Assembly (NCBI GenBank): GCA_963718895.1
Contig: CAVRAG010000007.1
Span: 736,001 to 800,000, forward strand
Source: an uncultured Nitrososphaerota archaeon
Lineage (GTDB): Archaea; Thermoproteota; Nitrososphaeria; Nitrososphaerales; Gagatemarchaeaceae
Reading direction: 5' to 3'
DNA length: 64,000 nt
The translations under genes and the position numbers were made by a program. Positions 7,710 to 52,847 of this stretch are shown piece after piece (position 1 is the first letter of the stretch; each line of letters begins with the position of its first letter). Below the pieces are notes generated by a model. That model saw only the letters and a program-made list of their open reading frames with translations. It did not search any database and was not told the DNA's origin.

Positions 7710-7722
7710 AGGTGTTGACCCC

Positions 7723-8408: not shown

Positions 8409-8463
8409 CGGTCACAGCTCGAAACCTCATTGGCCCCTAAAACCGTCATTGCAATGAGGAGAC

Positions 8464-8557: not shown

Positions 8558-8813
8558 CTTCACTGAACCCACCCCGACACGCCTGTTGCGCTGGGAGCAA
8601 GCCTCTGACCAAACCAAGATGGAATCTTGAGGCGCAATTCAACCGCAAACCGGCGGAGCATCGTGGGACGATCTCTCCACCCTGGTTTGTCAGCGATGAC
8701 GAGAGGTCCCTTGAGCCGGGATACCCACTATCTTCTCTCCGAGTTTGGTCAGGACGAGCACGCCTAGCTCATCATTCGGCTCAGCGCGGTCCTCCGCCGA
8801 ATCGCGCTTTGGC

Positions 8814-12188: not shown

Positions 12189-12701
12189 CTAGGCAACCGC
12201 CACTTGAACCGCGGCCGGGGCCGTCCATGTCACAGCTCCCGTGTCCCAGAGAATCGTCATCGTCTGCGTGGGGGTTATCGTCGCGAGGGTCGTGAACTGG
12301 AACTGGTACAACTGAGTGGTCGTTCCAGTGGCTGAAGTGCTGGTCACGGTGATAATGTACGTGTGGCTGGGTGTCGCTCCCGCGTTGAGCGTGATGGTCC
12401 AGAGGACCTCCCAGTCGCCTGGTACAAGGGCGTTCACGTAGGCCGTGCCACTGGGCGCCCATGTCATTGGCTGGGTCGTCAGCGCCTGCGCGCCCTCGAC
12501 GACGTTGTAGGTAATGGCAGAGGCGGTGAAGTAGCCGTTGTCGACGACGTACTCTCCTTGGTATCCCGCGTTGTTGCTAGTGTTGATGGTCACCGATGCC
12601 GCGTAAGCGCCAATCGATCCGATGAGTATGAGCGAAAAGACAGCCACATAGAGCAGCCTTATGCTCCTTCTGACGAAAGGAATCCTTATCATCTTTGCCA
12701 T
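12189..12701 (-). CDS. Secreted 170-aa filament/pilin-like subunit, paralogue 1
   Basis: Same architecture; first gene of an operon that ends in the S26 peptidase. Confidence 0.8.
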   Translation of the reverse strand: MAKMIRIPFVRRSIRLLYVAVFSLILIGSIGAYAASVTINTSNNAGYQGEYVVDNGYFTASAITYNVVEGAQALTTQPMTWAPSGTAYVNALVPGDWEVLWTITLNAGATPSHTYIITVTSTSATGTTTQLYQFQFTTLATITPTQTMTILWDTGAVTWTAPAAVQVAVA

Positions 12702-12889
12702 GATTCTCTCACTTTCTCCTGATGTTTTTTCTTGTGTTATGAGCAGGGGTTACGATTCCCGTCTGATAACCAGAACAGTTTGGCGGGTGAACCCGATATA
12801 AAGTCGTCTAAAAATATCCCAAAAGTCCACCATGTTATCAATTTCTCTTAACATTTCGTCGTTTGAGCCCGTTCGGTTCGTTAGTCCGC

Positions 12890-13510
12890 ATGGCGTTCAC
12901 TGACCTAACGGACGAGGAGTGGGAGGACGTCAGGGGCCTCATCCGGCCACGAGCCAAGAAAGGCAGACCGAGAGGAGACGAAAGACGAACCCTGAACGCA
13001 ATCCTGTTCGTCCTGCAGGAGAAGATACCCTGGAACTACCTCCCGAGCGAGTACGGCAACGACTCGACCCCCAACAGGAGGTTGAAAGAGTGGGAGGAGG
13101 ACGGGACGTGGGACCGAATAGCGGACGCCCTGGGGCTCGTCGAGGACTCCGACCTCATCGGGGAACCCGGCAGCGGAGACTCGGGTCTCGATTCTGGACT
13201 GTGGGACGTCTCGCAGGACTACCCTGCATCGGGTCGAGGGGAACTCCTCTGTCCGGCTCGACCAAGGATCACCATAGCCCGTGGAGATGCACCCGGAGAG
13301 GCTATCGGCGGCATGACAATCATCAGCTGCACGGAGGCAGACACCTGTCTTCCCATGTTTCACGGACCCGTGGGGGGAACGCGTCAGGAATGCATCCCGG
13401 CGACCTGCTTCTTGTTCGTTGAGGGAGAAGATGGGTTCCCGGGGTGCGCACTCGAAGTTCAGCTGGTGAGTTCGACACGCCGCAGGGCTGGACGACCTTC
13501 CCGGCCCTGA
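12890..13510 (+). CDS. IS5-family transposase N-terminal (DUF4096-like) domain fused to an unrelated Cys-rich tail; no DDE domain
   Basis: DLTDEEW...GRP..D.R..LNAILFVL....W..LP.EYG..ST...R...W...G.W. Confidence 0.7.
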   Translation: MAFTDLTDEEWEDVRGLIRPRAKKGRPRGDERRTLNAILFVLQEKIPWNYLPSEYGNDSTPNRRLKEWEEDGTWDRIADALGLVEDSDLIGEPGSGDSGLDSGLWDVSQDYPASGRGELLCPARPRITIARGDAPGEAIGGMTIISCTEADTCLPMFHGPVGGTRQECIPATCFLFVEGEDGFPGCALEVQLVSSTRRRAGRPSRP

Positions 13511-13896
13511 ACTGGGGTACCGAGGTTCAGGCCCACGGGCCCTCGAATTCGATGAGACCTCAGCTGACAAGCCGGGCCGAGTCCTGGCGCAGCTGGAGAC
13601 AAAGGGGCTTGCGACGGACCCGAGGCATCTTCACAGGATGCACGCACCTGTCCGATGGCTATCCCCTCCTGACCAAGGACCGGAGGCATCTGGACCGGAT
13701 ACCGGACCTCCTCGTCCTCACTCGGCGGACCTAGACTCCGGATGGGGCCTGGCTCGGGGTCTCCCTGTCGACCGTGCCTTCTTTGGGCTCGCCACGCCCC
13801 TTGTTGAGGGCGGCTGACCTAGCAAAGACCGGTCCTCGAGTCTGGACCGAGAGAAGGAAAGGTTGGCGGTTAAATTGACTGTCAGCGTGCTTCTAC

Positions 13897-14115
13897 ACCC
13901 GATTGCGCGGACATGAGTCTCCTCCTCGAACTGGAGATGAGCACAGGAATTACCTGAGCCGCAAAAACGTGATCGCGAGCGCAAGGGTCTTCCACGGCGA
14001 GGCGGCCAACGGGTCGAAGAGGAAGACATCACGTCCTCTGACTTTCAAGCGAATGCCGTCCCCGTGTATCGGGAGGGCCAACGAGCGAATGTCTCTTGAG
14101 CAGGCGGACGAACAA
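13897..14115 (+). ncRNA. Dispersed structured RNA element, copy B
   Basis: Near-identical core to copies C and E; TTAAAT box at 13870. Confidence 0.7.
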
Positions 14116-14369
14116 CGAATGGACAGGACCAAGCCTTGTGATTTCGGGGGGCTGAGCGTTTCCAGAAATTCCTGCAAGACTTGCATAGAATAGGACGCTT
14201 ATCCAAGATATGTAACCCAGCGTCCAAGTCCTCTTAGACGGAAATACGGAGCTTTGCAGAGGAGGTTGTGTACTATGTATCACTAACTGGGCGAATATCG
14301 ACCTTGTCGCCCCTATGTGAACGTCCTCGTTATCTACTCTCTTGCGCCGTTGAGGACCGTGGATTGAGG

Positions 14370-14702
14370 ATGACAACGGAAGAAAACCTCCGTGAAGCAA
14401 CGGGACAATCTCCAGAGACCATCATCTGCGCGGGATGCGACGAACCTGTTCAGGAGCTCCTGCAAGAGGATTCCCTGCGTCTGAGGAGGACGAACATGGA
14501 GGAAGTCCTCCCTCCGGTGAGGGCTTTCGAATGCCCCCGATGTGAAGCCATAATCTATTCAGACGAATTCACGTCCGGCAGATTTGTGCCTCCCCAGTTC
14601 AGGCGTCTGATAGTGCCGGTTGCTCGGCCCATGAGCGGGAGCCACTTCTCGCCGCAGACCGAGGTAGCCGTTCTGGGTGCGTCGGAGCCGTCTAGGAGTT
14701 GA
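14370..14702 (+). CDS. Small Zn-ribbon protein
   Basis: CAGC ... CPRC pairs. Confidence 0.5.
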   Translation: MTTEENLREATGQSPETIICAGCDEPVQELLQEDSLRLRRTNMEEVLPPVRAFECPRCEAIIYSDEFTSGRFVPPQFRRLIVPVARPMSGSHFSPQTEVAVLGASEPSRS

Positions 14703-14742: not shown

Positions 14743-15390
14743 TTACAGCGTCATTTTGACCATCACCGATGATTCGGTGGCATCGATGGTCGGGATAATC
14801 TTGAAGAGCGTGCGGAAGTCCGTGTCCAGGGCGGTTTTCAGGTAGGCTGTGTAGTGTTGACCAAAATCATGGGTCACAATAAGCGTGACATTGGATCCTT
14901 CCCGCTTGAGCTCTACCTTGATGTCGAGCCCGTACCGGCTCCTCATCTTGAGATATTCGAGGAAGTCGTCCACCCTGACATCCTGGAACCAGAACATCAT
15001 CATGTCCTTCATCAACTGATGCGAGTGCACCCCGGCGAGCTCCTGGAGCCTCTCGGCGTCAACGGCGTTGACCATGTCCTGAAATTGCGCCTTGGGGATC
15101 GTCACGAAGCCAAACCGCTCGGTGACGCTGTCCCAGAGGACGTACTTGTTCAGGACCGATGAGACCAGGGCATTCAGCGCTATACCCTTGTTCGCTGCCA
15201 AGCCCTCGAGCTTCGCCTCCAGCTCTTCCGGGAGCCTGATGGTCCTAAGGACGGTCCTGCTTTTCTTCTGCTCCCGCTTGGCGTCCGGAGAAGAGGTTTC
15301 CAAGTCCTTTAGTTTTTGCACGGGAATCTGTGCCGTATATGTTCCTTTTGACGAAGCTCCCGATTCGACGGTCAGTGAATCCACATTCAT
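14743..15390 (-). CDS. Ribbon-helix-helix putative regulator with C-terminal ligand-binding-like domain
   Basis: RTIRL...L...A...GI.LNALV..VL.KY..WD...RFG pattern typical of Nitrososphaerota hypotheticals; ATGA overlap with the upstream gene. Confidence 0.65.
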   Translation of the reverse strand: MNVDSLTVESGASSKGTYTAQIPVQKLKDLETSSPDAKREQKKSRTVLRTIRLPEELEAKLEGLAANKGIALNALVSSVLNKYVLWDSVTERFGFVTIPKAQFQDMVNAVDAERLQELAGVHSHQLMKDMMMFWFQDVRVDDFLEYLKMRSRYGLDIKVELKREGSNVTLIVTHDFGQHYTAYLKTALDTDFRTLFKIIPTIDATESSVMVKMTL

Positions 15391-15701
15391 GCGGCGATGG
15401 TCGAGACCTTCGACCTCTCGTTCCATTGAATGAGTCGGACGAGTCCGATTAGGAGGAGGGCGAAGGAGACCATGAGCGCCGCACTGAGGATACCGGATGG
15501 GACCTCCTGACCGACGGTGAGAAGGAGGGCGTCTCCGAAGCCGACCAAGGCGATCAGGGCGAACCCCACGACCATGAACTTGAAGAGTTGCTCCATGACA
15601 TCGCCCTTGAACATCTTGATGACGCTGTCAACGCACACGATTCCCACGACGCCAAGGATTCCGAACCCATAGGCGATGGCGACCTGGGTCGTGTCGAGCA
15701 T
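15387..15701 (-). CDS. Small 3-TM membrane protein
   Basis: Three hydrophobic helices; translationally coupled to the RHH gene. Confidence 0.65.
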   Translation of the reverse strand: MLDTTQVAIAYGFGILGVVGIVCVDSVIKMFKGDVMEQLFKFMVVGFALIALVGFGDALLLTVGQEVPSGILSAALMVSFALLLIGLVRLIQWNERSKVSTIAA

Positions 15702-16026
15702 GGACCGTGGGAACGAAAGTATCGGGATTTAGGAAGGAGGTACACTAAGTAGTACCTAGGCGACGAAGATGAGTGTTTTGTCCACCTAGGCAACGGGAGC
15801 GACAGCCTCGTGCATGATTAACAGGGCCGTTAGCAGCTTGCCAGGGCTGTTGTTTCATCAACCAGAGGCCTCGGTGGATGGGACTTCGGGGAGGGGACAC
15901 AGAATCTCGCCCGTGTGGCTGGCTCACCAAGAGAAACCTCCAGGAGGTTCACGTCGCTCATGGTCGTGTCTGTGAATCCTGCGGTATCGAGTGGCGCTTA
16001 AAAATCGCCTTACAGGCTTCGAGGAC

Positions 16027-16250
16027 ACCTGATTGCGCGAAGATGAGTCTCCGGCCTTGAACTGGAGATGAGCACAGGAATTACCTGAGCCGCAAAAACG
16101 TGGTCACGAGCGCAAGGGTCTTCCACGGCGAGGCGGCCAACGGGTCGAAGAGGAAGACATCACGTTCTTTGACATTCCAGCGAACGCCGTCGTGGTGAAA
16201 TCCCGGGAGGACGAACAAGCGCATGTCTGCCTAGACATGCAGACAAACTA
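16027..16250 (+). ncRNA. Dispersed structured RNA element, copy C (weak similarity may extend to ~16392)
   Basis: Near-identical core to copies B and E; TTAAAA box at 15998. Confidence 0.7.
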
Positions 16251-16654
16251 GCGAAGAAGATCAGTCACAGCACACCGAAATCAGGAACCGCTCGGCAGGG
16301 CATCCTATCTTCTGGTAGGGCGCCTCATGATATCCACCGGCCATCCGATTCGGGAAGTGCCAGCCGACGCCTGAGGCGGATCTTGAGCTGAAGCTTCGCT
16401 TCCAGGCTGTCACGATTCAGCTGGTAGAGGAGCCCCCGGACGACCTGTGGCTATCGCGATGCCAGATTCTCCAGCCTTTGAAGGACAGGGTGCAGCCTTC
16501 CCTTGAGCTTGATCGAGCTCGCTTTCTCCGCACTTTGCTGTCACCTATCGCGGCAAAGACTTGTCAGACTTGAGGAGGACCCGGGTTGCCGACAATCTCC
16601 AAACTGCGCTGGGAGGCAATGTTAAAGACACCAGTTTCTCCACACCCAATCAGA

Positions 16655-24862: not shown

Positions 24863-26921
24863 TTACGCTTGAGAAGAACTTGCAACTCCCTTTTCGACAA
24901 CACTCAGGGGAGGAAAGGCTCTACTCAAGAGGGGTCCTATTGACTTGTCCAAGGTTCGGGGGTTGGTTTCAAGGAATTTGGTGATGAATGCATGAGCAAT
25001 CAACGGCTTCTTTTCAACACCCTCCCTTCCCTTTATGTACTCGGAAACATCCTTGTATAGGGAACTGTCGAGTTTTTGGATAAAATCCTCCAAATTCTTG
25101 GAGAAGAAGAACACTTGATTGGTCAAATCGTCTATTCCATCATTTCTTACAATGGAGTAGGATTCGCCATCGTCAGAGTACTTGGCAGCGAGCTTTTCTT
25201 AGCGTGTTATCATCATGGTTGTCTCCATCGGCCAAAATCGTAAATGGAATGCCAATGTTGTTTAGAACCCGAGAGTACTTCCCGAAGTTGCCGTTGCTTC
25301 CTACATCTACTATGATGTTCTCTCTCTTGTCAATCTCCATGTCATAGTGCCTCGCCGCAATGTCCAGGAATTCCCGATCGGCCTCTCCCTCGCACATGAC
25401 TATCCTGTTCGCGAAGAATACTCTTGTGTCGATTTGGTATGATAGCTTGTACCGATCCTCGTCTTCAAAATGGAGAGCAGCATTCAGTTGGGTAGCGATA
25501 CTCTTCGCACCGGTTCTTCTAACGTAGAAGAGATTCGCGTTGAAGTCGAATATCAGATTGTGAACCAACTTGGGAGAGTGCGTTGCCACAATAATCTGGC
25601 TCTTCGTTGCAACTAACTTATCCATTAGAGCCTTCATCTGTGGAGGATGGAGATTGACAGCGGGCTCGTCCAGCAATATCACAGAATCTTCTACCCCGAT
25701 CGCCGCGGCCAAGAGAAAAAGCGATTCTGCCAAACCTGCTCCAACACGGTCCAGCTCGAATTGCTTCGAATTCGTTGAATCAGTTACAATGATGTATGTG
25801 TGGTGTGGAACCTGAGGTATGTTTCGTTGTTGAAAGTTTTCTTGACCGAGACTCACGTATCTGGGCAGTACATCGAAACTCAAGGAAGGGAATAGATCCT
25901 GGAAAGATTCCCTTATTGCGCGAAATCTCTTCCTCTGCTCAAGAATGTTGGACTCTTTCAGGCTAAACAGAAACTGGCCAAGATTCCACCCGTCAGCTTC
26001 GAGTCGATTTGTGTACTGTAGAGGTTCGTCTGCCGAGGCTGCCTGAGTGGCAACTGGTGTTTGGGCCACATGGTCAGCTTCGACTGTTGCCTTGCCGAAT
26101 ATCGTGCCTCCGCTTGTGAATATTATCTTGTTCCGCAGAATTGAACCGAGAATTGAAGAGAACGTAATCTGGGAGTTCTGACTTGGCGGAAATCCAGCTG
26201 AAATCAAGACTTGCTGGAACATCCTTCGATGATCCTCCGAGGCATTTGTCAAATATTGATCCTGAATGTCTTGGATTGTAAAGTAGGTCGAATCCTCGAC
26301 AAAGACTTTGTGTGAAGCGGCTTGGGGATCTGCGGACAGACTGATGCCATCCAGGAGACCTGCAAGATTGCTTTCGGGTTGCTTACCTTTGAACCCATTC
26401 TGCATCGAATCTCGAACATCATCCACCACATAGATCGTCCCCGTCCCATTGGGAGCGTGGAATCGTACGCCTAAGTCTATCAGTTCGAGTTCAAACACAT
26501 TATCCCGAGTAGTTGGAAAGTAGCCCAAGGGCCAACCCAGTGTGAGCCGAGCCCTTCTGCAAAGCTCGACGAGACGGTCGAAATTCTTGTAGTCGTAAAC
26601 ATAGGTCCTTTCCCCTGCGGCATCTCTTACTCGATAGACTCTGAGGAAGTCGAGCAGAGTCTTGGCCTCACTATTTGAGAACACCAACTCGGCTGAGAGC
26701 ACTGGAGGCTTGTTCGAGAATACTTCGTCCTCTGACGGCCTCTTGGAGGACGGAGGGAGGCTCTCCGCGAAGAGACGGACTATTCGGAGGAGATTTGACT
26801 TCCCGGAGTTGTTTGGTCCGACAATCACGTTTGACTTGCTAAGCGAGAGGCGTGTGGGCGGCTGCGAGTCGCCATCATACGAGTAAAGGCCTTGCACGGT
26901 CAATTCCTTGAGCTCCACCAT
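24863..26921 (-). CDS. OLD-family ABC-ATPase/TOPRIM nuclease (frameshift near 25170)
   Basis: GPNNSGKS, LLDEP..LHP, ATHS, then TOPRIM-like CEGEAD and ADGD; lower GC than flanks. Confidence 0.8.
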
Positions 26922-27069
26922 GGATTTTACCTCAATTGATTAGAGAATATCGCTTCTCTTAAGGTCTAGTCGATTAGTCTTGGAATGCATCAAGAAGACA
27001 ATCCCGAACAGGCCGGATGCTTCTAGCAAATGCCATTGGTGCTTAAATGCGCTACCAAACTGAGTTTTC

Positions 27070-27240
27070 ACCCTACGACACGCAAATGACTCTCCCGCCC
27101 TAAACCAGAGACGATACGTGGAGTTGCCTGCGCTGGAAGAACGCAGTCTGAGTGTCGAGGGTTGCTCCGCGGAAGGCGAGCCAACAGGTCCGAAGAGGAA
27201 GACTTCACCACGGATCTTTGACTTTCCAGCGAATGCCGTA
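27070..27240 (+). ncRNA. Dispersed structured RNA element, copy D (most divergent; compensatory changes)
   Basis: ACCCT-A-CGACAC pairs with GTGTCG-AGGGT where copies B/C have ACCY..TTGCGC/GCGCAA-GGGT; TTAAAT box at 27043. Confidence 0.65.
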
Positions 27241-27350
27241 CCGTTAACCAGAGAGGGCTCGTTAACCGCGCCCAGTGAAACTTCGACTCAGGCAACACAA
27301 CTCCTATTAGTCAAAGACTAGATTTCTTCTGCGTTGAGAATCTCACAAAC

Positions 27351-33042: not shown

Positions 33043-35667
33043 TCAGCGATTTTCCTCAAAGGAGGCGCTATAGGCTCGTTTGAAAAGCTCGATGCCTCTT
33101 GGCGTAGTATTCGTCTCCCTTAGGAGGTACATCTCCAATGCTAGCAGACTCATCTGCAGCGTTTCTTCTTGGTATCCCATCTCCTTCACAGCATCGACTA
33201 GCACGGATTGGAGTCCCTCTATCCTCTCCTGGTCGTTCTTCTTTTTCAGAGCATCATCTACTCCTTGCCTTACTTTGGGTTGCTTCAGAAGAGGCTCGAG
33301 GGCAATCATGCGCTCCCAGTCTTGGTTAGCTCGGAAGTCTTTCGCATGCGCATCGTAGAAGGCGCGCATCGTCTCTGAGAGCAGGGCTTCACTCTCTTGA
33401 GGGGTCGCACTCTCCACCATCGAGATGTCGATCAGGTAAGGGCCGTGAAAACCACCCATGGAGACCATCGCCTGACCCCTCGCCAGGTACATCAGATACT
33501 GGTTCTGCTCTTCCCCAAGTCCCATGGCCTCACTCATGACCTTTCTTTCGTTCCCATCGACCAGCCCGTGCGTGATCTTCAGGTTGGTGTTCTTGATGGC
33601 GTCAGGAGCGAGCTTCGTCGGCGTCTGGTCCACGATTATTATCCCGACTCCGAACGCCCTTGCTTCATCTATCATCTCGCTTAGGGTCTCGACTGCCTTC
33701 GCCTCGGAGTGGGCACCGGTGAAATCCCCGCCGGCGGCCACCTTTGATGTGGTCGAGAAAAGCCTGTGCGCCTCCTCGATCAGGATTACCTGTCCGAGCT
33801 GCGAACTCGCGCCTCGAGCCTCCAGATGCTCGTAGATCATGCCGAAGATCACGCCCATTAGGAAGCTCTTCTCCTCGTTGTCGGCGATCAAACCCAACTC
33901 CAGTATCGTGGGTTCCCTCAGCAGTTCCTCGATCTCGATGTGGCCTGAGAACATCAATCCCTTCCCGGCGATGAGTAGGCTGTGAATCCTCCTTCGCAAC
34001 GCTTCCCTGATCTCGCCGATCGTATCCTTCTTGTACTCCAGCCTATCCACCACTCGCATCGTCTCGACGTAGAAATCGTACATGTCCGGCGTCTCGCCAC
34101 GGGTCGATGTCGCCAGGCCCCATCCTCGTCTGGTGTACGTGTTGTAGAGAGCTTCTTCGAAGATCTGCGGCAGAGGTCCCCACATTGTGAAGCTCGCCTT
34201 CAGTACTGACTTGAGCATCTCTATGTGCCTGATCACGGGGACTCGATCTGGTACGGCAAAGGGGTTTATCCTAAATCTGTACCTCATTTCATCACCGAGG
34301 GTGAAGACCCGAAGCCCTGGGACGGCCTTCGAAAGTGAGCGATACTCTGACTTCACTGGCTCGATTATTATGAAGGGGGTGGGCTTCTCGCCCGAGCGGA
34401 TTTGGCTCAGAAGCCATTTCGCGGTCTCTGTCTTGCCCCTTCCTGGCATCCCAGAGATGAAGCAGTGCATGGTGAGGTTGTTCTTCCCAATCGTCAGCGA
34501 GTTGTTTGTCGTCGCGCCTCTGTCGAGAATGGTCCCGAGCCTTATCTCTGAGCCCGAGTCGCCGCTATCATCTCTCGCGGGAGGGTTGACGGCACACTTC
34601 ACCACTGGATATACATCAAAGCCTGGCATCTCCTCCTCTGGAAGGTTGACGAGGGCGGCGAGTTCCCGGGACGTCAGGGGCGTGCACAGGCTCGGGGTCT
34701 CGAATATCCCGATCTTTGGGGTATTTCTCACGTGCCAGAACTCCAGGTTCCTTGCTGCTGCCCGCAGGTAGCTTGCGTATTCGTCGGCCAATCCAGTAAT
34801 CCGGATAATCTCGGGCTGGGACGCTTCACCCACGAAGCTACTCTTGAGAATCGAGGCCAGTTTGGCATAACCGCCGGCGGAGCGGGCGCCGAAGTAGTAG
34901 GCGACATCCCACATCCCTATCGCTTTTCCTGACCGGATACGGTCCAAATCGGTTGTAAGTGCCTCTACGTAGTCCTTCAGGTATCTGTCGCTGACCTGTC
35001 GAGTCGCAGAGACCTTGGAATCATGATACGAGACGCTGGCGAATTCTTGGTTTCCCTCTATCTCGTTCATCAGTATCTCTTCCGTCCCAATCAAGTCAGT
35101 TCTTCGGAGCGGTCTTGCCAGGACTAGGGACCACCACTCTTCGTGCTCTCCGCCGCTCGCATCTGTCATGCAGCGCAGGACTTGGTTCAGCTGGCCAGAC
35201 TTGAGACTCGGTATCCCGGTCAGGAGCCCCCCGAACTTCGTGGACCCGGCGATTCTCATAAGGATTCTCGCCGCGGATGAAGTTGCTTCCTCTGAATCGT
35301 CCAAGACAAGTCCCGGACACTTGGCCCGGTAGAGCGCGACTACGGGCGCAAGCGTCCCGGCGTCTGGTGGGCCTCCGGCTCGGAGCTCCTTCTCATAGGA
35401 TTCGAGAAGAAGGTACATGTCGATTCGATTTTGCGTTCCACGAACGAGAATACCAAAGTCTAGATTCAGAGTCCATAGCGAGACCACTACGTCCTCCACA
35501 TTCGTTCCACCGGATGGAATCCGCTCGAACCTTGCGGCTCGATAGCCTGCGACCTGCGTGACTACCGTGTTCTGCAGGAGGTCCTGTAGCTTCTCGTGGT
35601 CCCCCGAGATGCCTTCGATCGAAGCGTTGCGAAGGATACCCAGCTCGTCCTGCGGAGGACTAGTCAA
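33043..35667 (-). CDS. Large HerA/DUF87-family ATPase with N-terminal extension
   Basis: Walker A HCFISGMPGRGKT, IIEPVKSEY, Walker B LIEEAHRL, EARAFG..DQ.P. Confidence 0.88.
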   Translation of the reverse strand: MTSPPQDELGILRNASIEGISGDHEKLQDLLQNTVVTQVAGYRAARFERIPSGGTNVEDVVVSLWTLNLDFGILVRGTQNRIDMYLLLESYEKELRAGGPPDAGTLAPVVALYRAKCPGLVLDDSEEATSSAARILMRIAGSTKFGGLLTGIPSLKSGQLNQVLRCMTDASGGEHEEWWSLVLARPLRRTDLIGTEEILMNEIEGNQEFASVSYHDSKVSATRQVSDRYLKDYVEALTTDLDRIRSGKAIGMWDVAYYFGARSAGGYAKLASILKSSFVGEASQPEIIRITGLADEYASYLRAAARNLEFWHVRNTPKIGIFETPSLCTPLTSRELAALVNLPEEEMPGFDVYPVVKCAVNPPARDDSGDSGSEIRLGTILDRGATTNNSLTIGKNNLTMHCFISGMPGRGKTETAKWLLSQIRSGEKPTPFIIIEPVKSEYRSLSKAVPGLRVFTLGDEMRYRFRINPFAVPDRVPVIRHIEMLKSVLKASFTMWGPLPQIFEEALYNTYTRRGWGLATSTRGETPDMYDFYVETMRVVDRLEYKKDTIGEIREALRRRIHSLLIAGKGLMFSGHIEIEELLREPTILELGLIADNEEKSFLMGVIFGMIYEHLEARGASSQLGQVILIEEAHRLFSTTSKVAAGGDFTGAHSEAKAVETLSEMIDEARAFGVGIIIVDQTPTKLAPDAIKNTNLKITHGLVDGNERKVMSEAMGLGEEQNQYLMYLARGQAMVSMGGFHGPYLIDISMVESATPQESEALLSETMRAFYDAHAKDFRANQDWERMIALEPLLKQPKVRQGVDDALKKKNDQERIEGLQSVLVDAVKEMGYQEETLQMSLLALEMYLLRETNTTPRGIELFKRAYSASFEENR

Positions 35668-37282: not shown

Positions 37283-39384
37283 TTGAAGGCGAATCGGGAA
37301 ATCATTTTGGGGGTAGACCTGGGAACCACAAGTTCCTGCGCAGCAATATTTGATTCTAAGGGCCTCCGAATAATCTCCACTCAGGGCATATCTGCTGAAG
37401 CGGAAAAGACATTCCCCTCGGTAGTGGCCGTCACCGGCGAGGGTCGCGTCGTGGTAGGAGAGAGGGCCAGGCTTCAGCTCTCGAATAACCATGAGAGCGC
37501 CGTGAGCGAGAACGAAGGGCAAGCTCGGCACGAACTATAGGGTGAGTTTGAATGGAAAGGAGTACACCGCTGAGCAGATAAGCGCCTTTATCATCCGGAG
37601 AATTCGGAACGAGACAGACAAGGTGCTCGGGTATCCCATCAGGAAGGTGGTCATGACCGTACCCTCGTACTTCAACTACAATCAAGATCGAGCTGTACGA
37701 GAGGCTGCAAATTTGGCAGGACTAGAGTTGGTCAGGCTGCTCCCTGAGTCCGTGGCAGCGGGCGCCGCCTGGTGCGTCGACAGGCCTGACTGGGAGGGAG
37801 AAAATGTTGGTGATCTCCCTTGGAGGGGGTGGTCACGATGTGGCAGTTATGAATACAGGAGGAGGGGTGATGCAAGTCCTCTCTACGATCGGGCAACCCG
37901 AGAGCGGAGGAGATAGCTTGGACTGGGCCATCGTCGAGCTCTTCCTGGAGGACATCAAGAACACGACGAGAACGAACCTTAGAGACGATCCAGCCTCCAT
38001 GGTCCGGTTGAAGCTCGCCGCGGAGAAGGCCAAGATGGAACTCTCGAATTTGGATTCGACGAATGTCACACTCCACTCTTCCAGCGCTTCCGAAATACTT
38101 AGATGGAACTACACGCTGACGAGGATGAAGCTAGAGGAGCTGGCGGCCCCTATGATATCGAAACTGGAGGAGTCGGTGGGCGACGCTCTCGAATCGGCAG
38201 AAGTCCCTGCGTCGGCGATTGACAGGCTGATCCTCGTCGGAGGAATGACGAGAATCCCGTTCGTCAGGACCGAATCGAGGGATTGGTCGGCAAGAGCGCA
38301 GAGGCGAAGGTCGACTTAATGTACGCACCGGCCCTCGGCGCGGCAATCGAAGCATCCGTTCTTGACGGCCAGCGGAAGGACTTCCTGATTCTTAGAACGA
38401 CGAGGCTCTCGCTCAGCGTCGACTAGGGGAGGGAAGTGTGACCAAAATCGTGAGCAAGAACACCACAATCCCCACCAAGCAGACGAGGATATTTTCGACG
38501 GCGGCGGACCTCCAGACGGCGGTCACGATTCGCGTGCTCCAAGGGGAGAGCGCGATGGCCTCCGACAACCTCCCTCCTAGGTACACTCGGGACTCGATGC
38601 AGTCCCCGCTCCCAAGGGGGTCCCTCAGATCGAGGTCGGCGTGGAGATAGATGCTTCCGAAATTCTGCGGGTCGTCGCCAAGGACCTCGGAACGGGAAAG
38701 AAGAAGGAGATGTCTCTCTCGAGATGGCACACGCTATCCGGTTCGACGAACACCGCACGCAGAGGCTCCATCGCTGAGACACCCGACGCGTCTCAGAGCG
38801 TCACTGCGACAGCCGGGACAGGCCCGGCCGCTGGTCGTGAGAGTGGCGGCCCTCCCGAGGCTGAAGAGCGGCGAATCTATCAGGAGAGGAGTGAGAAGGT
38901 GGTTGCATCAACACCTCTTCAGCACAACAGCAGGGAAGATTGGGAAAGGGTCTATCACCGCGACGTACGTCTGGCAGAAGGGGCAGCCGTGCGCAACGTC
39001 CTCGAAAAACTTCTTGCGGTGCGGGATGACCTCGATGCGGCGATAATGGCCATGGAAAAGCGAGGGGATGAGGGCCCCCTCCTTGAGGGTGTGAAAATGA
39101 CCCTCAGGAAGCTCGATTCGCTCATGGCGACAGAGGGCGTGAGGCCCATCGAGGCGGTCGGAAAGCTGTTCAACCCGCACCTGCACGAAGCAATAGATAG
39201 GGTTCAGGGTACGGGGGACAGAGACCTGGTGATTGAAGAGATTCGAAGGGGATTCATGTACGGGGACAAGGTCCTCAGACCGAGCTCTGTGAAGGTCGAG
39301 CTGGCGTCTCGGACGAACGACAATCGAACAACTGATTGGGCCGAGAGCCCGGGCCTTGTATTCCTATGGTGGGCGCGAGGTTAA
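37283..39384 (+). CDS. Divergent Hsp70/DnaK-like protein fused to a GrpE domain (several frameshifts in the Hsp70 part)
   Basis: [48 protein letters not shown]; ORF 38641-39384 runs from [13 protein letters not shown] into GrpE LEGV..FNP.LHEA..GF..GDKVLRP. Confidence 0.75.
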
Positions 39385-39469
39385 TCGAAGATCACCTCGG
39401 TCAAGCCGCCACCTCGGCAGAAGCCAGAAGGCGACGGGAGGCAGACAACCAATCAAGGACGGCGGGGGG

Positions 39470-39476
39470 TTAAATA
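39470..39476 (+). promoter_or_regulatory. Archaeal TATA box for RNA element E / LAGLIDADG unit
   Basis: TTAAATA 27 nt upstream of the element start; the same spacing occurs in copies A, B and D. Confidence 0.65.
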
Positions 39477-39496
39477 GAGTGACGGATGGTTTGTGT

Positions 39497-39895
39497 GCCC
39501 GACTCCGCGAAAATGACTCTCTCGCCCTGAACGGGAGACGATACACAGGAATTACCTGAGCCGCAAAAACGTGGTCACGAGCGCAAGGGTCTTCCACGGC
39601 GAGGCGGCCAACGGGTCGAAGAGGAAGACATCATCTTTGACTTTCCAGCGAATGCCGTCCTGGTGAAATCCCGGGAGGGCGAAACAGCGCATGTCTGCCG
39701 ACGAGGCGGACGAACAGGCGAAATCGCGCAAAGCGGACTCAGGCACCCGACCACGGCTTCTCCGAAACCAGACCCACGCTGCAGGCTCAGGTGGCCGTCT
39801 GCCCCATCTGGGATGCGTTTCAGCGTCGTTTCCCGATTTGTGGCGTGCGTGGGACCTGGCGGGAAGGAAGCTGCGGTCGAGCACAGGAGCTGAAA
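39497..39895 (+). ncRNA. Structured RNA element, copy E (leader of the LAGLIDADG gene; conserved core to ~39720)
   Basis: Hairpins TCTCTCG/CGGGAGA, CAGG/CCTG, GCCGC/GTGGT, CTTCC/GGAAG, TCCTGG/CCGGGA, GTCTGCC/GGCGGAC. Confidence 0.7.
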
Positions 39896-41146
39896 ATGCC
39901 GGATGCAAACCTACGAAAACCGGACGAAGTGGGGAAGACCGACCTTGAGCAGTACGACGTCGAGCAGGCCATCGGCATCGTCCGCGGGCTGGGAGAGGGG
40001 CTAATCGAGGCGACGGCGCACTCGAAGCACCACTTCCGCAGGGAGTGGCTCGACCAGCTCGTAGAACGGTACCGGAGACAGCCCGGCAAGCCCGTCATCC
40101 ATCTGGACGACCTCGGCGACGAAGTAATACCCACGCTCTCGGGCGGCGCTCGCGAGTTCCTCAGGCCCTACTGGGAAGGACTCGTGAAGGAGCACGGCTC
40201 GGAGTGGGGTGCCCAGAAGTTCAGGTGCGTCTGGGACATCTTCTCGGCGAGAGGGAACGTCTCGAGGTGGGCGAAGCTCGGGAACTGGAGGAGGTTCTCC
40301 GGGCTGAGGGGGCTACACGTCGACGACCTTGAGCCCTATGTCGTAGCACTGCGGGCGTCGAGCGTTGGGACCAGCAGGGTGATACTGAACCCCAAGCTGC
40401 CTTTCAACCTCGCGACGCCTGCGGGAGCGAAGATCATAGGGTACAGGGGGGATGCTGCATACAGGACATCAGCATTCCACAACCTCGAGCCGGTGCTTCA
40501 CGAGGACTACAAGCAGGCGATCACGGAGACGATAGGCGGGAATCCGTTCACGACCACCTCGAGAGAGGATGGTTGTAACAGGACGAACGTCGGAGTCTTC
40601 GTGACAATGCTGCAGTCTATCGCAGGCATCGACAACACACAGAAACAGAAGAGAGCATGCAACCCATTCCCGAGCTGGTTCTTCACCATCCCAAGCGATG
40701 TGATGGCGGCCGGTTTGAGGGCAATCTGGGACTCTGAGGGCTCGCCGGGCAAAGAACTTAGACTGGGACAGACCGTCGCAGTCGAGAACGCTAGTCCCAA
40801 GTTGAGCGCTCTGGGAATCGGAATCAAGAGACCCTTCAGCTGGCTGGAAGAATCAGCACAGGAGACGATGGGAGCAAAACCACCGATGCTTCTCACATCG
40901 ACAGCGCTGCTCTTATACACCTTCGGCATAGATTCGTATGTTGGACCGCAGAAGACTTGGAGAAGCAAGGACCAGCTCACAAGCGTGTTCTGGGTCCTCT
41001 CCATCTACAGAAAGCGGAACATGGAACTCTTCCGACAACACATCGACTTCCTGTCCACAGACAAGCAACAGAGACTACGAGACGCCATCGAGAACACAGA
41101 TCCGTCTTCCCCTTCCTCCTCTTTTTTTTCTCCTAGGGTGACTTGA
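39896..41146 (+). CDS. Free-standing two-motif LAGLIDADG (DOD-type) endonuclease-like protein with N-terminal extension
   Basis: Motif 1 AKIIGYRGDA, motif 2 PSWFF..AGLRAIWDSEGS, tail LL..FGI.S..W.L.I..N...F...I.F...K..RL; AGGAG ribosome-binding site before ATG 39896. Confidence 0.75.
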   Translation: MPDANLRKPDEVGKTDLEQYDVEQAIGIVRGLGEGLIEATAHSKHHFRREWLDQLVERYRRQPGKPVIHLDDLGDEVIPTLSGGAREFLRPYWEGLVKEHGSEWGAQKFRCVWDIFSARGNVSRWAKLGNWRRFSGLRGLHVDDLEPYVVALRASSVGTSRVILNPKLPFNLATPAGAKIIGYRGDAAYRTSAFHNLEPVLHEDYKQAITETIGGNPFTTTSREDGCNRTNVGVFVTMLQSIAGIDNTQKQKRACNPFPSWFFTIPSDVMAAGLRAIWDSEGSPGKELRLGQTVAVENASPKLSALGIGIKRPFSWLEESAQETMGAKPPMLLTSTALLLYTFGIDSYVGPQKTWRSKDQLTSVFWVLSIYRKRNMELFRQHIDFLSTDKQQRLRDAIENTDPSSPSSSFFSPRVT

Positions 41147-41427
41147 TGAAATACAAAGTGTACGCTTCGATCAGTCACGTCCCCGAAGAACGCTCGGTGA
41201 AAGCGGACTTGATTCTCGTAACCAACGGTGAGGGTAAGCTTGTTGACTACTTGCCGGGCCCGGCTACCATAGACGGGTACGAAGGGAGGTTTACTAAGAA
41301 CAAGGCTAAAGAAAGCGCGAAAGACTGGGTCAACGAAAGCCTCGAAATCGACACGAAGATAGATGACGTTCGACTCGTGCCCTATCCGCGGTTGAGCAAA
41401 ATGCTCTTCAAGCTTCAGAACAAGTGA
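41143..41427 (+). CDS. Hypothetical 94-aa protein coupled to the LAGLIDADG gene
   Basis: Overlaps the LAGLIDADG stop; truncated paralogue at 43874. Confidence 0.7.
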   Translation: MMKYKVYASISHVPEERSVKADLILVTNGEGKLVDYLPGPATIDGYEGRFTKNKAKESAKDWVNESLEIDTKIDDVRLVPYPRLSKMLFKLQNK

Positions 41428-43873: not shown

Positions 43874-43975
43874 ATGAAGGCGAATCACGGGTACAAAGTG
43901 TATGCCTCAATCCGTCACGTTCCGGAAGCGTCCGCGAAGGCGAACCTGATTCTTGTCACGGACAGCGGGGGCACT
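43874..43975 (+). pseudogene. Truncated paralogue of 41143-41427
   Basis: YKVYASIRHVPE.S.KA.LILVT matches, then similarity stops at the low-GC ATPase end. Confidence 0.6.
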
Positions 43976-43991
43976 TCAAATGGCGTTGCCT

Positions 43992-44978
43992 CTATGATTC
44001 CCGCGATAGCTTGTACATCGAGTCGACCAACTCATACATCCCCTCTGTCTTCCGAATCAAGCGCATGTTGATGAGCGAGTCAATTGACCTTTGCAGGCTT
44101 TTGTCATCCGGCGTTGATCCATAGTAAGCACTGCTAAGGGCCTTCAGTTCTTTCCAAGTACATCGCTTTTCGAATGATGAAATGGCTTTCATGATTGAAA
44201 GTTCGAGTGGACCGAGACTCTTCAGCTCGTCGTTTAGGACGTGCTTAGCGTTGTCCTTGACTTCGAAAAGGGATTTCTCGTGGCTGATTCCCTGGCTCCT
44301 TTTCGCGCCGTAGAAGGATAACCATCCCGGAATGCCGCTGAATGTCTCTGTAGCTTCTGTGATTTCCTGCTCCGAAGATTTGACTTTGCATATGCGAAAC
44401 CCCTTCTGGAGGAAATCTCTGCTTGTGGAGGAATTGAAGGGTTCCAGTTCTATCTGTTGAGTTGGTCTACCAAGCATTGATGGATCGTTGGACAGTCGCT
44501 TAATCATGCCGGTTGCTGATCCCGAGAATAAGAACTTCGCTTTGGATTCATTGTACGCTACTGAAAGCAGTTTTGGAAAGGTTGGATCGTTGATGTTCTG
44601 GATTTCGTCCAGAGCAATTGTGACTTCTGGGAGATTCCTGAGGAATTGTTCGAGTGTTCTTACCGGTTTCTTCTCGAATTCAGCTTTGACTAGTTTCAGG
44701 TCTAATGTGATTTTGGCTTTTACCTTTGCACTTACCAGGTCTATTATCCGGTTGCCAAGATCGGGGATTGCTAGGCAGGTTGAACTGTCGATGAATACGC
44801 CGTTTCTTTCCTTGGTTATCGTCTTTAGGATCGATGTCTTTCCGATTCTTTTCGGTCCTATTACGAGTACCCAGAAGCCGGCATCTAGTTGTTTTGTGAT
44901 GTTCGTTAGCTCTGCGTCTCGCCCATACATGAGATTCCTGTTTTCCTTTGGGCGAGTGTCAAAGTATGGACATGGCAA
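43992..44978 (-). CDS. Archaeal AAA+ ATPase with C-terminal wHTH
   Basis: YFDTRPK..L.GR..E, GPKRIGKTS, LDEIQ, SGS, GIPGWL. Confidence 0.88.
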   Translation of the reverse strand: MPCPYFDTRPKENRNLMYGRDAELTNITKQLDAGFWVLVIGPKRIGKTSILKTITKERNGVFIDSSTCLAIPDLGNRIIDLVSAKVKAKITLDLKLVKAEFEKKPVRTLEQFLRNLPEVTIALDEIQNINDPTFPKLLSVAYNESKAKFLFSGSATGMIKRLSNDPSMLGRPTQQIELEPFNSSTSRDFLQKGFRICKVKSSEQEITEATETFSGIPGWLSFYGAKRSQGISHEKSLFEVKDNAKHVLNDELKSLGPLELSIMKAISSFEKRCTWKELKALSSAYYGSTPDDKSLQRSIDSLINMRLIRKTEGMYELVDSMYKLSRES

Positions 44979-44983
44979 AGATA

Positions 44984-45127
44984 ACCCTCGCCAGTAGCTG
45001 GCGTGGGTAGATGAGAAAAGAGTTTTGATTGGATACAAGAATGGAATCTAGGAATGTCAGAATGTAGGGGACTTTGCAGTAGTTGGTACTTGTAGTAGTT
45101 ACCCTCGCCAGTAGCTGGCGTGGGTAG
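44984..45127. repeat. Two identical 27-bp hairpin-forming direct repeats, 90 bp apart
   Basis: ACCCTCGCCAGTAGCTGGCGTGGGTAG at 44984-45010 and 45101-45127. Confidence 0.9.
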
Positions 45128-49900: not shown

Positions 49901-50016
49901 CGAGGAGCCGGCTCATGTCTCTCGTGCGGCAGAGTAGAGACGACCAAGATAAGGCCAGTTGTTCGTAAAACGTTATAACCATCGCGCCTCGGACGGGTTC
50001 GAAGCAGGAATAGGTT

Positions 50017-52208
50017 ATGCCGAAGTTCAAGTCGACAACAGAAGCGCTCAAAATCGTCCACGATAGGGAACACATACGCAACCTAGGGATCATCGCCCAC
50101 GTCGACCACGGGAAAGACGACCGACCTCTGACTCCCTTTTGGCGGCTGCGGGATGCTTTCACCCTCCGTTGCCGGCCAAGCGTTAGCTTTGGACTACATG
50201 GAGCTGGAACAGACAGACAGATGACGATCAAGGCAGCGAACGTCACTTTGTACTACGAAGAGGATAACAGCCGTATGTAATCAATCTAATCGATACGCCG
50301 GGCCACATCGACTTCACCGGGAAAGTAACGAGGTCGTTTGAGGGCCGTTGACGGCGCAATCGTCGTCGTAGACAGCGTCGAGGGGGTAATGACCCAGACC
50401 GAGACTGTCACCAGGCAAGCGCTCGAAGAACGGGTCCGTCCGGTCTTATACATCAATAAAATCGACCGTTTGATAAAAGAGCTTCGATTAGCGCCCGAAA
50501 CGATGCAGGAGTGGCTCTTCAACATCGTCAAGGACTTCAACCGCCTCATCGACACGTACGCGGAGCCGGAGTACAAGGAGAAGTGGAAGGTGACGGTCGC
50601 GGACGGGCAGGTCGCCTTCGGCTCGTCCAAGGACAAGTGGGGCTTCAACTTCGGTCATGGCCAAGAAGGTCGGGCATGTCGTTCAAGGACATCATCGACG
50701 CCTACCAGACGAAGGGCCCGAGGAGCTGGGCAAGAAGCTCCCGCTCCACGAGGCGCTCCTCGGCATGGTCGTCAAGCACCACCCGCCGCCCCACGTGGCG
50801 CAGGCGTACCGCATCCCCAAGATCTGGCAGGGCGACCTCAACAGCGACGTGGGCAAGTCGCTGCTGGCCTGCGACGAGAACGGCCCGATGGTCATGATGG
50901 TCACGAACGTCGTCGTCGACCCGGCCGCGGGGCTTGTGGGCGTCGGCAGGCTCTTCTCCGGCACCGTCACCAACGGCGACCCGGTCTACCTCCTCAACTC
51001 GAAGAAGGAGGGCAAGATCCAGTCGGTCCAGCTATTCATGGGCTTCCAGAGGGAGATAGTCGACTCGCTCCCGGCGGGCAACATCCCCGCGCTGCTCGGG
51101 CCTCGACATCCGGTCCGGCGAGACGATATCGACGCTCAAGGACGTCGTCCCGTTCGAGTCGATACACTACGTCTGCGAGCCGGTCGTGACGACGGCGGTC
51201 GAGGCGAAGCACCCGAGGGACCTCCCCAAGCTCGTCGAGGCGATGCGCAGGCTCAACATCGAGGACCCGAACCTCATCATCACCATCAACCAGGAGTCCG
51301 GCGAGACGCTGATGGCCGGCATGGGCGTGCTGCACCTCGAGATAGCGACGACGATGCTCCAGCAGCAGGGGCTCGAGATAATCACCTCGCCGCCCATCAT
51401 CAACTACAGGGAGGCGGTCAGGCCGGTCGGCGGGCCCGATAATGTCGCGCTCCCCGAACAGGCACAACAAGATATTCATCAAGGTCGAGCCGCTCGACCC
51501 GCACATCGTCGAGCTCATCAGCAACGGCACCTCAACGAGATGACGGACAAGAAGGGCATCCAGAAGACGCTGAGGGACAACGGCTGGACCTCGGACGAGG
51601 CGAAGTCCGTGGTCGGCATCGACCCGAAGGGCAACATGCTCACGGAGGAGACCAAGGGAGTCCAGTACCTGCAGGAGTCGATGGACTCCATCAGGGCGGG
51701 CTTGGAGGACATCATGAAGAACGGGCCGCTCGCCTACGAGATCTGCAGGGGCATCAAGGTCACGCTGACCCACTACGTCCCGCACGAGGACCCGGCGCAC
51801 AGGACCTACGCGCAGCTGATGCCGGCGACGAGGAGGGCCATGCTCGGGGCGATGCTGATGGCGAACCCGACGCTGCTGGAGCCGATCCTCGGGATAGAGG
51901 TGAAGGGGCCGGGCGACCTCATCGGTGCAATCACGGGCGTCATCAGCGCCAAGAGGGGCAAGCTCATCAACGTCGAGCAGAGGGAGGTCGTGACGATAAT
52001 CCAGGGCGAGATCCCGGCGTCGGAGACCTTCGACCTGTCGCAGGTCATGAGGGGCGCGACGGCGGGCAAGGCGACCTGGAACACCAGCTTCAAGCTCTGG
52101 CAGTCGGTCCCGACGAACATGCTCCTGCCGCTGGTCACGGAGACGAGGAAGAGGAAGGGCCTGTCGCCGGAGCCGCCGACCCCGTCAGAGTTCATCGACA
52201 AGGAGTAG
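50017..52208 (+). CDS. fusA: Archaeal elongation factor 2 (frameshifts probably sequencing errors)
   Basis: [37 protein letters not shown], diphthamide loop HEDPAHR. Confidence 0.95.
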
Positions 52209-52847
52209 GCGTGCCAGGCGCCCACAAGGCGCTGAAAGATAGGATAGCGTGGCTGTGGCGGAAGAAATGGCCGTCCAGCCTCTCTCCGGCTCTTCCGCCG
52301 CAACCGCGCCGGGTCCCTCGGCTCAGATGATCGATTCCGCCCTTTCCGGACTTTCAATCAGGACACATTGTCTTGGATGGAATTCTGGAGTACTCAGTCT
52401 GGTCGCAATGTCGATGAAGTTCAGAGTGAAGATATCCAAGGGAGACAAAGTTCTATGCTCGCGAGGGTCCCTGAACTCGAGAGGTCCCACCCAGGAAGGG
52501 CGAGGGACGAAGGAAAGCATCTAGTCAGTCTATGAGTTGGTTGGGGCAACGCAGCGCGACGAGGCTGAATCTCCTCTCGCTTGGTTCGCGGCACGACGAC
52601 GAGCCGAGGTTTAACCTCCTCTTCCAGATGGACAATCTTCCAGTTGGCACTGTATGCTACGAAAAGCACGGAGTTAATGGTGCTGTCGATAAGTTTCCAC
52701 ACCCGGTTCATTTCAATCCTCTCTTGCGGAGCCACGTTGCCATACCGGTGGGCGAAATCGATGTGGCTTTATGGCTTTGGCTTTGAACGGGTTCAGTCGT
52801 CGAACTCGAGTATGACCTGACGTGCGACAAGACCCGGGTGCGATGGT

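Follow-up and report, generated by a model that had tools for sequence, protein, structure and literature searches.

A new pseudoknotted RNA family found with free-standing LAGLIDADG homing-endonuclease-like genes upstream of archaeal aEF-2

Introduction

In phages, free-standing homing endonuclease genes lie beside a conserved target gene, and in 'collaborative homing' such a gene is paired with an intron at the target that has no open reading frame (ORF) of its own; F-CphI is reportedly an enzyme of this kind. Here we describe a 64,000-nucleotide (nt) stretch of an uncultured Nitrososphaerota archaeon (GCA_963718895.1, contig CAVRAG010000007.1, positions 736,001 to 800,000), referred to below as the window, from a 3.13-Mb assembly of 11 contigs that is 80.5% complete. 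In it, an ORF of 416 amino acids (aa) resembling LAGLIDADG homing endonucleases is preceded by a structured RNA and followed by a small coupled ORF, the partner (Table 1). As in the free-standing systems, no intron or intein encloses the nuclease, which always occupies a single locus next to a highly conserved gene (here aEF-2) amid variable gene content, and as in collaborative homing, a small ORF-less insert occupies the most conserved codons of the presumed target gene in many nuclease-bearing genomes. In contrast to the phage systems, the host is an archaeon, the LAGLIDADG enzyme has an extra N-terminal domain, and the insert resembles a protein-spliced bulge-helix-loop intron rather than a self-splicing one. 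The cassette further includes a ~240-nt structured RNA and a predicted docking partner and, unlike in known free-standing systems, aEF-2 is a putative cleavage target, put forward from the locus and the insert.

LAGLIDADG enzymes of archaeal introns and inteins (I-DmoI, I-Tsp061I, PI-PfuI and TliVMA) resemble the window nuclease in structure (Foldseek E 6e-7 to 5e-3) and have in common with it two LAGLIDADG helices with terminal acidic residues and a conserved Gln and Lys. The window nuclease differs in being free of intron and intein, in its ~165-aa N-terminal domain, and in falling under the Pfam cut-off with no PDB sequence match. A structured RNA ahead of a homing endonuclease ORF is known from twin-ribozyme introns, where the GIR1 lariat-capping ribozyme lies upstream of the ORF. 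The likeness consists of a pseudoknotted RNA of ~200 nt immediately upstream of a homing endonuclease ORF in a single transcript; GIR1, however, is eukaryotic, embedded in an intron and tied to a His-Cys box nuclease, whereas the RNA described here has no Rfam match.

Nuclease-inhibitor pairs offer a parallel to the partner, a small coupled protein predicted to lie over the DNA-binding face and catalytic residues of the nuclease and fused to it in two contigs. In contrast to those pairs, the partner matches no known fold or family, and an inhibitory role is suggested by a predicted pose. We know of no such small protein partner for LAGLIDADG enzymes. Type III toxin-antitoxin systems differ in that the RNA here is a single ~240-nt unit with copies kilobases apart and no tandem short repeats. 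In the part of the literature that our searches covered, there was no report of this RNA family, of a docking partner, of a fixed aEF-2 locus with cargo or of an aEF-2 intron; these four, the last of them as a candidate, are what is new here.

A pseudoknotted RNA family

A preliminary description of this DNA, made from its letters, had proposed a structured RNA of about 400 nt from position 39497 onward. The RNA is real, but it is shorter, at ~237-250 nt (39495-39743). Similarity to the closest relative (G036:C28) covers 39496-39743 and resumes only at 39878, so 39744-39877 is a dispensable spacer; because this stretch is unconserved and missing in that relative, we put the RNA at ~240 nt. The Rfam comparison that the preliminary description had called for, group I introns and HEARO included, retrieved no known family for the RNA: Rfam 15 gave zero matches at gathering score across the window, and relaxed thresholds over 39440-39920 gave just two chance-level long non-coding RNA matches (E 0.77 and 7.3).

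The initial alignment held 14 full-length copies from relatives within the same taxonomic family. With six nested helices and three pseudoknot pairs, 80.8% of its cells were paired, as against 39-45% when the 3' partners were slid by 1-3 columns, and the covariation score was 0.250, as against at most 0.106 in the slid versions; none of 500 shuffles reached it. A covariance model built from this alignment (R1; 237 positions, 40 pairs) was used to align 28 copies, in which 81.3% of cells were paired (37-45% when slid) and 30 of the 40 pairs showed compensatory change, although such later alignments lean to the model's structure because they were fitted to R1. The pseudoknot is formed between a 5-mer near the 5' end of the RNA and the loop of helix 4, with perfect pairing in 13 of the 28 rows and five different pair sets (UGCGC/GCGCA in six rows, GACAC/GUGUC in three, GACGC/GCGUC in two, and GACGC/GUGUC and GGGGC/GCCCC in one each), and the other rows are mostly truncated copies without the 3' strand. 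The RNA is thus a genuine, new, pseudoknotted structured family.

A TT[AT][AT]A[AT] box stands at a fixed distance upstream of 27 of 38 RNA copies, the remainder having near variants. Conservation that starts ~25 nt past a TTAAAT box is what is expected of an archaeal promoter and its primary transcript. In several copies (39455-39485 in the window, and others) the TTAAAT box also lies within an inverted repeat, GGCGC...GCGCC, which might be a repressor operator.

No guide segment was found: the RNA alignments hold no internal hypervariable stretch of at least 12 nt. The sequence past the conserved 3' end does vary, but it is the ORF leader in cassettes. Local alignment of the RNA to the 5' region of aEF-2 did no better than shuffled controls. 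A reading of the first 60 nt as a C/D-box small RNA was rejected, as the D' box is unconserved and both 'guides' pair together and covary. A tandem GA motif flanks hairpin 1 of the RNA and might be read as a kink-turn. When a degenerate 20-nt pattern of the RNA was run over a genome-contig collection, it gave chance matches in bacteria only; the stricter two-block pattern drew 29 metagenome contigs, all 29 of which carry the RNA, and found no match among viral contigs. No genome carrying the RNA was listed among public sequencing runs, where only small-share DNA runs from soil, bioreactor and peat came up.

The LAGLIDADG nuclease

By sequence, the nuclease is a divergent LAGLIDADG member. The Pfam LAGLIDADG_3 model matched it at E 0.0014 and 19.3 bits, under the curated cut-off of 22.5, and the one NCBIfam match was far below threshold (E 0.019). 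There was no match in a PDB sequence search, none in PADLOC for the nuclease or the partner, and no relative when the single protein was compared with the genome-contig collection. The family is rare, as an exhaustive profile-free search found 67 clusters at E <= 0.001 among 1.84 billion representatives.

Membership in the LAGLIDADG family is indicated instead by the predicted fold and the motifs. The structure prediction that had been proposed as a check yields a two-motif LAGLIDADG endonuclease with an extra N-terminal domain (AlphaFold pLDDT 91.4, pTM 0.90). Both the model and Foldseek show the alpha-beta-beta-alpha-beta-beta-alpha fold with its beta saddle, and of the 13 PDB entries that Foldseek matched at E <= 0.001, those at the top are LAGLIDADG enzymes of inteins and introns (the TliVMA intein endonuclease at 6e-7; also PI-PfuI, PI-SceI, I-Tsp061I, I-DmoI and the related WhiA). 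Residues 1-165 form the additional, mainly helical domain, part of which aligns in a profile comparison with the helix-turn-helix region of a distant relative. Each of the two LAGLIDADG helices carries an acidic residue at its end (D186; E281/G282), as had been read from the letters, and these positions are conserved in 35 aligned homologues, among which G282 is invariant and D186, E281, Q292 and K390 nearly invariant.

Association of the RNA with the nuclease

Our family survey covered 97 genomes, with the nuclease in 13, the RNA (by the model) in 12 and both in six (G000, G025, G028, G036, G037 and G041). In all six, the RNA immediately precedes the nuclease or a piece of it, weakly so in G041; the nuclease of G025 has 26% protein identity, the RNA-linked gene of G036 comprises the N-terminal 64 aa only, and that of G037 is an N-terminal fragment. 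In genus g4, a LAGLIDADG ORF at +73 nt from the RNA is so distant that hhalign alone links it (probability 72%, E 3.3e-5). Nucleases linked to the RNA belong to three distinct clades that span the deepest split in the tree, and related contigs join near-identical RNAs to deeply different nucleases.

The preliminary description had called for a test of whether RNA and nuclease occur together, and such a link was borne out in part. Among copies with at least 500 nt downstream, counted at >=95 bits in genomes and >=100 bits in metagenomes, 4 of 15 from genomes and 9 of 24 from metagenomes have a nuclease-profile match as their next downstream neighbour; the counts are not independent because several contigs are near-duplicates (L226 of L242, L229 of L234). 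The pairing is far from random. On the other side, 9 of 16 homologue places in the family have no RNA within 1.5-kb flanks, and these include the closest full-length relatives, at 37-43% identity (G060, G080, G019 and the second G036 gene). In genus g10, 6 of 55 genomes carry the nuclease but none of the 55 carries the RNA, and the complete, single-contig genome G027 has two RNAs and no nuclease match. Of 151 genomes sampled across the order, three had the RNA (G000, G027 and a third with a weak match).

Genus g9 (G040:C49, L221, L225, L239) has another type of ORF 47 nt after the RNA, which we take from its N-terminal sequence to be an archaeal-type PEP carboxylase; a housekeeping gene has apparently been placed there behind the RNA and its promoter-like box.

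The small partner protein

The stop codon of the nuclease overlaps the ATG of the partner (TGATG at 41144-41148), and the ORF listing gives the partner as 94 aa, counted from a TTG at 41143. Partner homologues follow the nuclease in G025, G028, G019 and contigs L224, L235 and L234, and in L242 and L226 the partner is fused in frame to the nuclease. Its usual form has two similar ~90-aa domains. The window and L234 have a one-domain form (47% identity), and because L234 has it too, the short form is not an assembly accident. No known family or fold was found for the partner in any search made (Foldseek best E 2.7e-3, probability 0.47, TM ~0.2; VIA best Z 3.8; Atlas best score 0.80).

Prediction of a complex between nuclease and partner gave a score of 0.80, versus 0.01 for the best control. 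Among solved complexes 58 of 80 attain that mark, and among mismatched pairs 2 of 110 do; this calibration applies only roughly, since we used alignments of our own. The docking runs agree in at least 92% of contacts, with a partner pLDDT of at least 87. On the nuclease side, the predicted interface includes residues 185-186, 279-293, 352-367 and 387-393, which belong to the beta saddle and to the ends of the two LAGLIDADG helices. Since the predicted pose would block DNA binding, it suggests an inhibitor or immunity role for the partner.

The pyrimidine-rich tract at the 3' end of the nuclease ORF has 86-95% identity to G025 and G028 over 22-36 nt and encodes a conserved SSSPSSFF-like C-terminus; it could be a terminator or attenuator between nuclease and partner. 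A fusion of the two proteins by a -1 frameshift at the T8 run of this tract is excluded in the window because of a TAG at 41134-41136 in that frame. In G034 (L091), a short-form partner-like ORF at 7504-7779 lies ~4 kb upstream of aEF-2, and no nuclease was detected in that genome.

Copies of the RNA without the nuclease

The preliminary description had counted four further copies of the RNA in the window. A blastn search with 39400-39900 gives exactly four, all on the + strand (16028-16255, 87%; 13865-14114, 80%; 8473-8563, 86%; 27081-27239, 77%), and the five window copies are all the RNA matches in the assembly. Four of the five are full length, but copy D is a 5' fragment only. Their covariance-model scores (235.9, 230.9, 216.5, 158.5 and 62.9 bits) show that the copies are not due to chance.

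Co-orientation was seen in 8 of 8 contigs with at least two RNA copies, and in seven of the eight the best-scoring copy is the most downstream one; in the window, copy B scores slightly above copy A. Truncated copies always retain the 5' end, and their end points vary (~55, 62, 75, 100-150 and 125 nt). Contigs L224 and L226 have in common a first truncated RNA copy and 2.2 kb. Where L226 holds a full RNA and nuclease, L224 holds an RNA cut after ~150 nt, followed by ~3.8 kb of other DNA and then a full RNA with a deeply different nuclease; set against L226 and L242, L224 thus reads as truncated RNA, cargo, and full RNA with a different nuclease. Nuclease fragments adjoin RNAs in G036, G037, G041, L234 and L243, and several stages of decay can be seen, from N-terminal stubs (G036, G037) through an internal deletion (L234) and a frameshift (L229) to a C-terminal stub (G041); even the 'solo' RNA of L243 is followed by a nuclease remnant of ~80 nt.

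Judged from these sequences, the ORF-less window copies are most likely promoter-proximal remains of earlier cassettes. The preliminary description had considered an autonomous/non-autonomous element pair; the co-oriented arrays, the stronger degradation of upstream copies and the adjoining nuclease fragments better fit remains of old cassettes.

Between copies C and B lie the 144-aa zinc-ribbon-like ORF (14268-14702, +) and a 227-aa ribbon-helix-helix/HicB-like ORF (14743-15426, -), an order repeated beside RNA copies in G027 and G025; the synteny of copy C with the zinc-ribbon ORF recurs in G027. Just upstream of copy C is an N-terminal fragment of an IS4/IS5-type transposase (DUF4096; 12863-13510, +).

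An insert in the P-loop codons of aEF-2

Among 24 hand-picked and related genomes, seven (G080, G067, G005, G031, G037, G036 [L047 ~4470-4500] and G025) carry a 23-39-nt insert in aEF-2, exactly between the HVDHGK and TTTSD codons, which breaks the frame. Minimum-energy folds show the same architecture in all seven inserts. An exon-exon helix covaries at synonymous sites (ACGUGG/CCACGU, ACGUAG/CUACGU, ACGUUG/CAACGU, AUGUCG/CGACAU), and so does a central 4-bp helix, in which the His-Gly codons that close the 5' exon pair with the 3' end of the insert. The 5' junction is a 3-nt bulge, and the 3' junction is a loop, not a strict second bulge. Archaeal splicing endonucleases accept this relaxed bulge-helix-loop form. 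Since seven genomes would otherwise have an essential gene out of frame, we infer that the insert is removed from the RNA, and we regard it as a candidate messenger-RNA intron in an essential archaeal gene. We would place the homing target at or near the P-loop codons of aEF-2 because many nuclease-bearing genomes carry the insert there, which suggests homing into these codons, with the insert as a shield against it.

The aEF-2 locus

In 11 genomes and one metagenome contig, nuclease and aEF-2 are found on a shared contig, and in all of these the two are co-oriented, with the nuclease 0.2-9 kb upstream (distances in Table 1). There was no counterexample among these 12 judgeable cases (G019, G041 and G075:C40 could not be judged). 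In L236, RNA, nuclease and aEF-2 follow each other directly, and RNA-only copies in G012, G021 and G027 lie 2.7-12 kb upstream of aEF-2. The DNA from cassette to aEF-2 differs between genomes and holds defence-type genes; relatives have MazG-like and DUF2075/Nhi-like genes at the same locus.

Explanations of the locus

The explanation that we prefer, and to which we give an even chance, is that of stacked free-standing LAGLIDADG homing-endonuclease cassettes with a structured leader RNA acting in cis. An archaeal promoter would be followed by the pseudoknotted ~240-nt leader, the nuclease and the coupled small protein. Placed at the 5' end of the messenger RNA for the nuclease, this leader would control its expression or processing; the nuclease, with a helix-turn-helix-like N-terminal part and a two-motif catalytic core, would home to a target at or near the P-loop codons of aEF-2; and the partner, lying on the DNA-binding saddle and active site, would restrain it. 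The cassette family would be confined to the variable, defence-rich island directly upstream of aEF-2, where successive invasion and recombination may have stacked old cassettes in one orientation. By analogy, the unit would work like a free-standing homing endonuclease gene with flanking co-conversion. If all this is true, the RNA would be the first structured RNA family specifically tied to LAGLIDADG nuclease genes, the partner a candidate protein inhibitor of a homing endonuclease, the island a homing-endonuclease-bordered hotspot shuffling defence genes beside an essential translation gene, and the insert a candidate messenger-RNA intron in archaeal aEF-2.

Several observations weigh against this explanation. 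The RNA also stands ahead of unrelated genes (the PEP carboxylase in G040 and three metagenome contigs, a small ORF in G024). A simple leader would not call for a pseudoknotted RNA of 237 nt in which many unpaired bases are conserved, and the RNA is better conserved than the adjoining nuclease, with nucleases at 25-40% identity where blastn still finds the RNAs. The 18 ORF-less copies retain the fold (83.1% paired, 25 of 40 pairs compensatory), which is equally compatible with an RNA that has its own function, although the compensatory change may predate loss of the ORF. A nuclease-profile search found no nuclease trace in the 3 kb downstream of copies B, C and E, so that their origin as remnants is drawn from other contigs. 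As to the homing target, it speaks in favour that the nuclease or a fragment occurs in five of seven insert-bearing genomes versus 2 of 17 without the insert, but this contrast is only indicative because the genomes are hand-picked and related; against it, G000, G060 and L236 have a nuclease and no insert, and G005 and G031 an insert and no detected nuclease.

Among the explanations that give the RNA a larger part, the preliminary description had put forward a ribonucleoprotein like those of HEARO/OMEGA (IscB, IsrB, TnpB), with which the locus does have in common a structured RNA adjoining a nuclease gene, scattered RNA-only copies and an RNA more conserved than the protein. Nevertheless, we do not consider it to be such a system because the nuclease is a LAGLIDADG enzyme and not of the RuvC or HNH class, no guide segment was found in the RNA, and many members of the nuclease family do without the RNA; the Rfam models of those RNAs do not match either. 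A guide-RNA role is unsupported, and the ORF-less copies are most likely not guide-RNA genes. A trans-acting RNA of another kind, be it a scaffold, a ribozyme maturing the nuclease message or an antitoxin-like RNA keeping the nuclease in check, with the ORF-less copies as working extra genes, strikes us as rather unlikely. Its complex covarying fold with pseudoknot and conserved unpaired bases, kept in ORF-less copies together with the promoter-like box that each copy retains, would suit such a role, as would its linkage to nucleases of three clades, deepest split included, and to the very distant LAGLIDADG ORF of genus g4; but the homologue places without RNA, closest full-length relatives among them, genus g10 with nucleases and no RNA, the complete genome G027 with RNAs and no nuclease, and the lack of an internal guide-like stretch all speak against it, and LAGLIDADG enzymes recognise DNA through protein. 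We hold at a similarly low level a variant in which the RNA would be a working part (cofactor, ribozyme or RNA-level brake) of a three-piece selfish module with the nuclease and a saddle-masking protein; the module would spread by cutting the intron-less aEF-2 P-loop, with the protein-spliced mini-intron shielding carriers and defence genes carried along. If true, this would amount to collaborative homing in Archaea with defence genes as passengers.

The RNA might otherwise be an independent host non-coding RNA gene that serves as landing pad or homing target, with nuclease genes inserting after it and borrowing its promoter, and this we find a little less probable still. It would explain why RNA and upstream DNA can be 93-97% identical in related contigs with deeply different nucleases, with the swap point ~30 nt past the RNA end or near codon 50, why two unrelated LAGLIDADG lineages lie behind the RNA, and why structure is maintained in ORF-less copies; the ORF-less L243 is 96-98% identical to nuclease-linked RNAs until ~11 nt before the RNA end. 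Yet this 'empty' site retains an ~80-nt nuclease remnant, RNA-less members of the nuclease family occupy the same aEF-2 locus, no 3' RNA fragments were seen by blastn, and the RNA occurs only here and there (in 12 of the 97 genomes of the family and 3 of the 151 sampled from the order), unlike the conserved essential genes that are the usual homing targets. We consider it very improbable that mobile elements, integrating site-specifically into a single RNA gene in the way known from tRNA genes, left the copies behind as duplicated attachment sites: the copies are co-oriented and 5'-anchored with foreign DNA between them, and an IS5-like transposase fragment lies beside copy C, but they are truncated at different points with no common crossover core, are 77-90% identical rather than near-identical, and have no integrase beside the copies examined. 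We give equally little credence to a riboswitch-like cis-regulator of any gene that follows. ORFs do start 20-190 nt past the RNA at several loci (nuclease, PEP carboxylase, small ORF, zinc-ribbon ORF); these genes, however, are unrelated in function, many of the copies lack an ORF on their own strand within 700 nt, and Rfam offers no match.

Other features of the window

The features of the window and the distances between nuclease and aEF-2 are collected in Table 1. The TATA box, ribosome-binding site, 416-aa ORF and coupled 94-aa gene of the preliminary description were all found where it had placed them. Within the window, aEF-2 and DnaK (37283-38650) are split across frames, while both are intact in other genomes; assembly indel errors are the likely cause and pseudogenes a less likely one, so the ORF ends in the window need caution.

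Table 1. Features of the window, and distances from nuclease to aEF-2 by genome
Feature	Position or genomes	Strand	Remarks
RNA copy D, 5' fragment	8462-8613	+	62.9 bits; blastn similarity stops after ~90 nt
RNA copy C, full length, then 144-aa zinc-ribbon-like ORF	13895-14128	+	216.5 bits
RNA copy B, full length, without nuclease ORF	16025-16263	+	235.9 bits
Old/GajA-like ATPase-TOPRIM nuclease	25173-26921	-	
RNA copy E, full length, diverged	27068-27308	+	158.5 bits
HerA/mad8-like ATPase	33043-35667	-	
TTAAAT box, promoter-like	39470-39475	+	~25 nt ahead of start of conservation
Structured RNA copy A, then nuclease	39495-39743	+	model R1 39495-39730, 230.9 bits; similarity to G036:C28 reaches 39743
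Unconserved spacer, RNA to ORF	39744-39877	+	missing in closest relative G036:C28
AGGAG ribosome-binding site	39885-39889	+	7 nt ahead of ATG at 39896
416-aa LAGLIDADG homing-endonuclease-like ORF	39896-41146	+	~165-aa N-terminal domain and two-motif core
Pyrimidine-rich tract including T8 run 41122-41129	41098-41133	+	3' end of nuclease ORF, DNA-level conservation
Small partner ORF, short one-domain form	41146-41427	+	translationally coupled to nuclease
Fragment resembling partner N-terminus	43874-44071	+	tblastn 71% identity over 28 aa
PDC-S27-like STAND ATPase	43992-45038	-	
aEF-2 gene, conserved right-hand island border	50014-52357	+	P-loop codons near 50098-50115; no insert
Nuclease to aEF-2, 0.2-0.3 kb	G060, G080, second G036 gene, G075:C132		
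Nuclease to aEF-2, 1.2 kb	G037		
Nuclease to aEF-2, 3.2 kb	G067, G064, G054		
Nuclease to aEF-2, 4.1 kb	G025		
Nuclease to aEF-2, ~9 kb	G028, G000		

Elsewhere in the window, two tandem paralogous ORFs of 170 aa, secreted or pilin-like (11652-12164 and 12189-12701, both on the - strand), come after a 649-aa surface protein and a signal-peptidase-like ORF. Transcripts starting from RNA fragment D would be antisense to this block.

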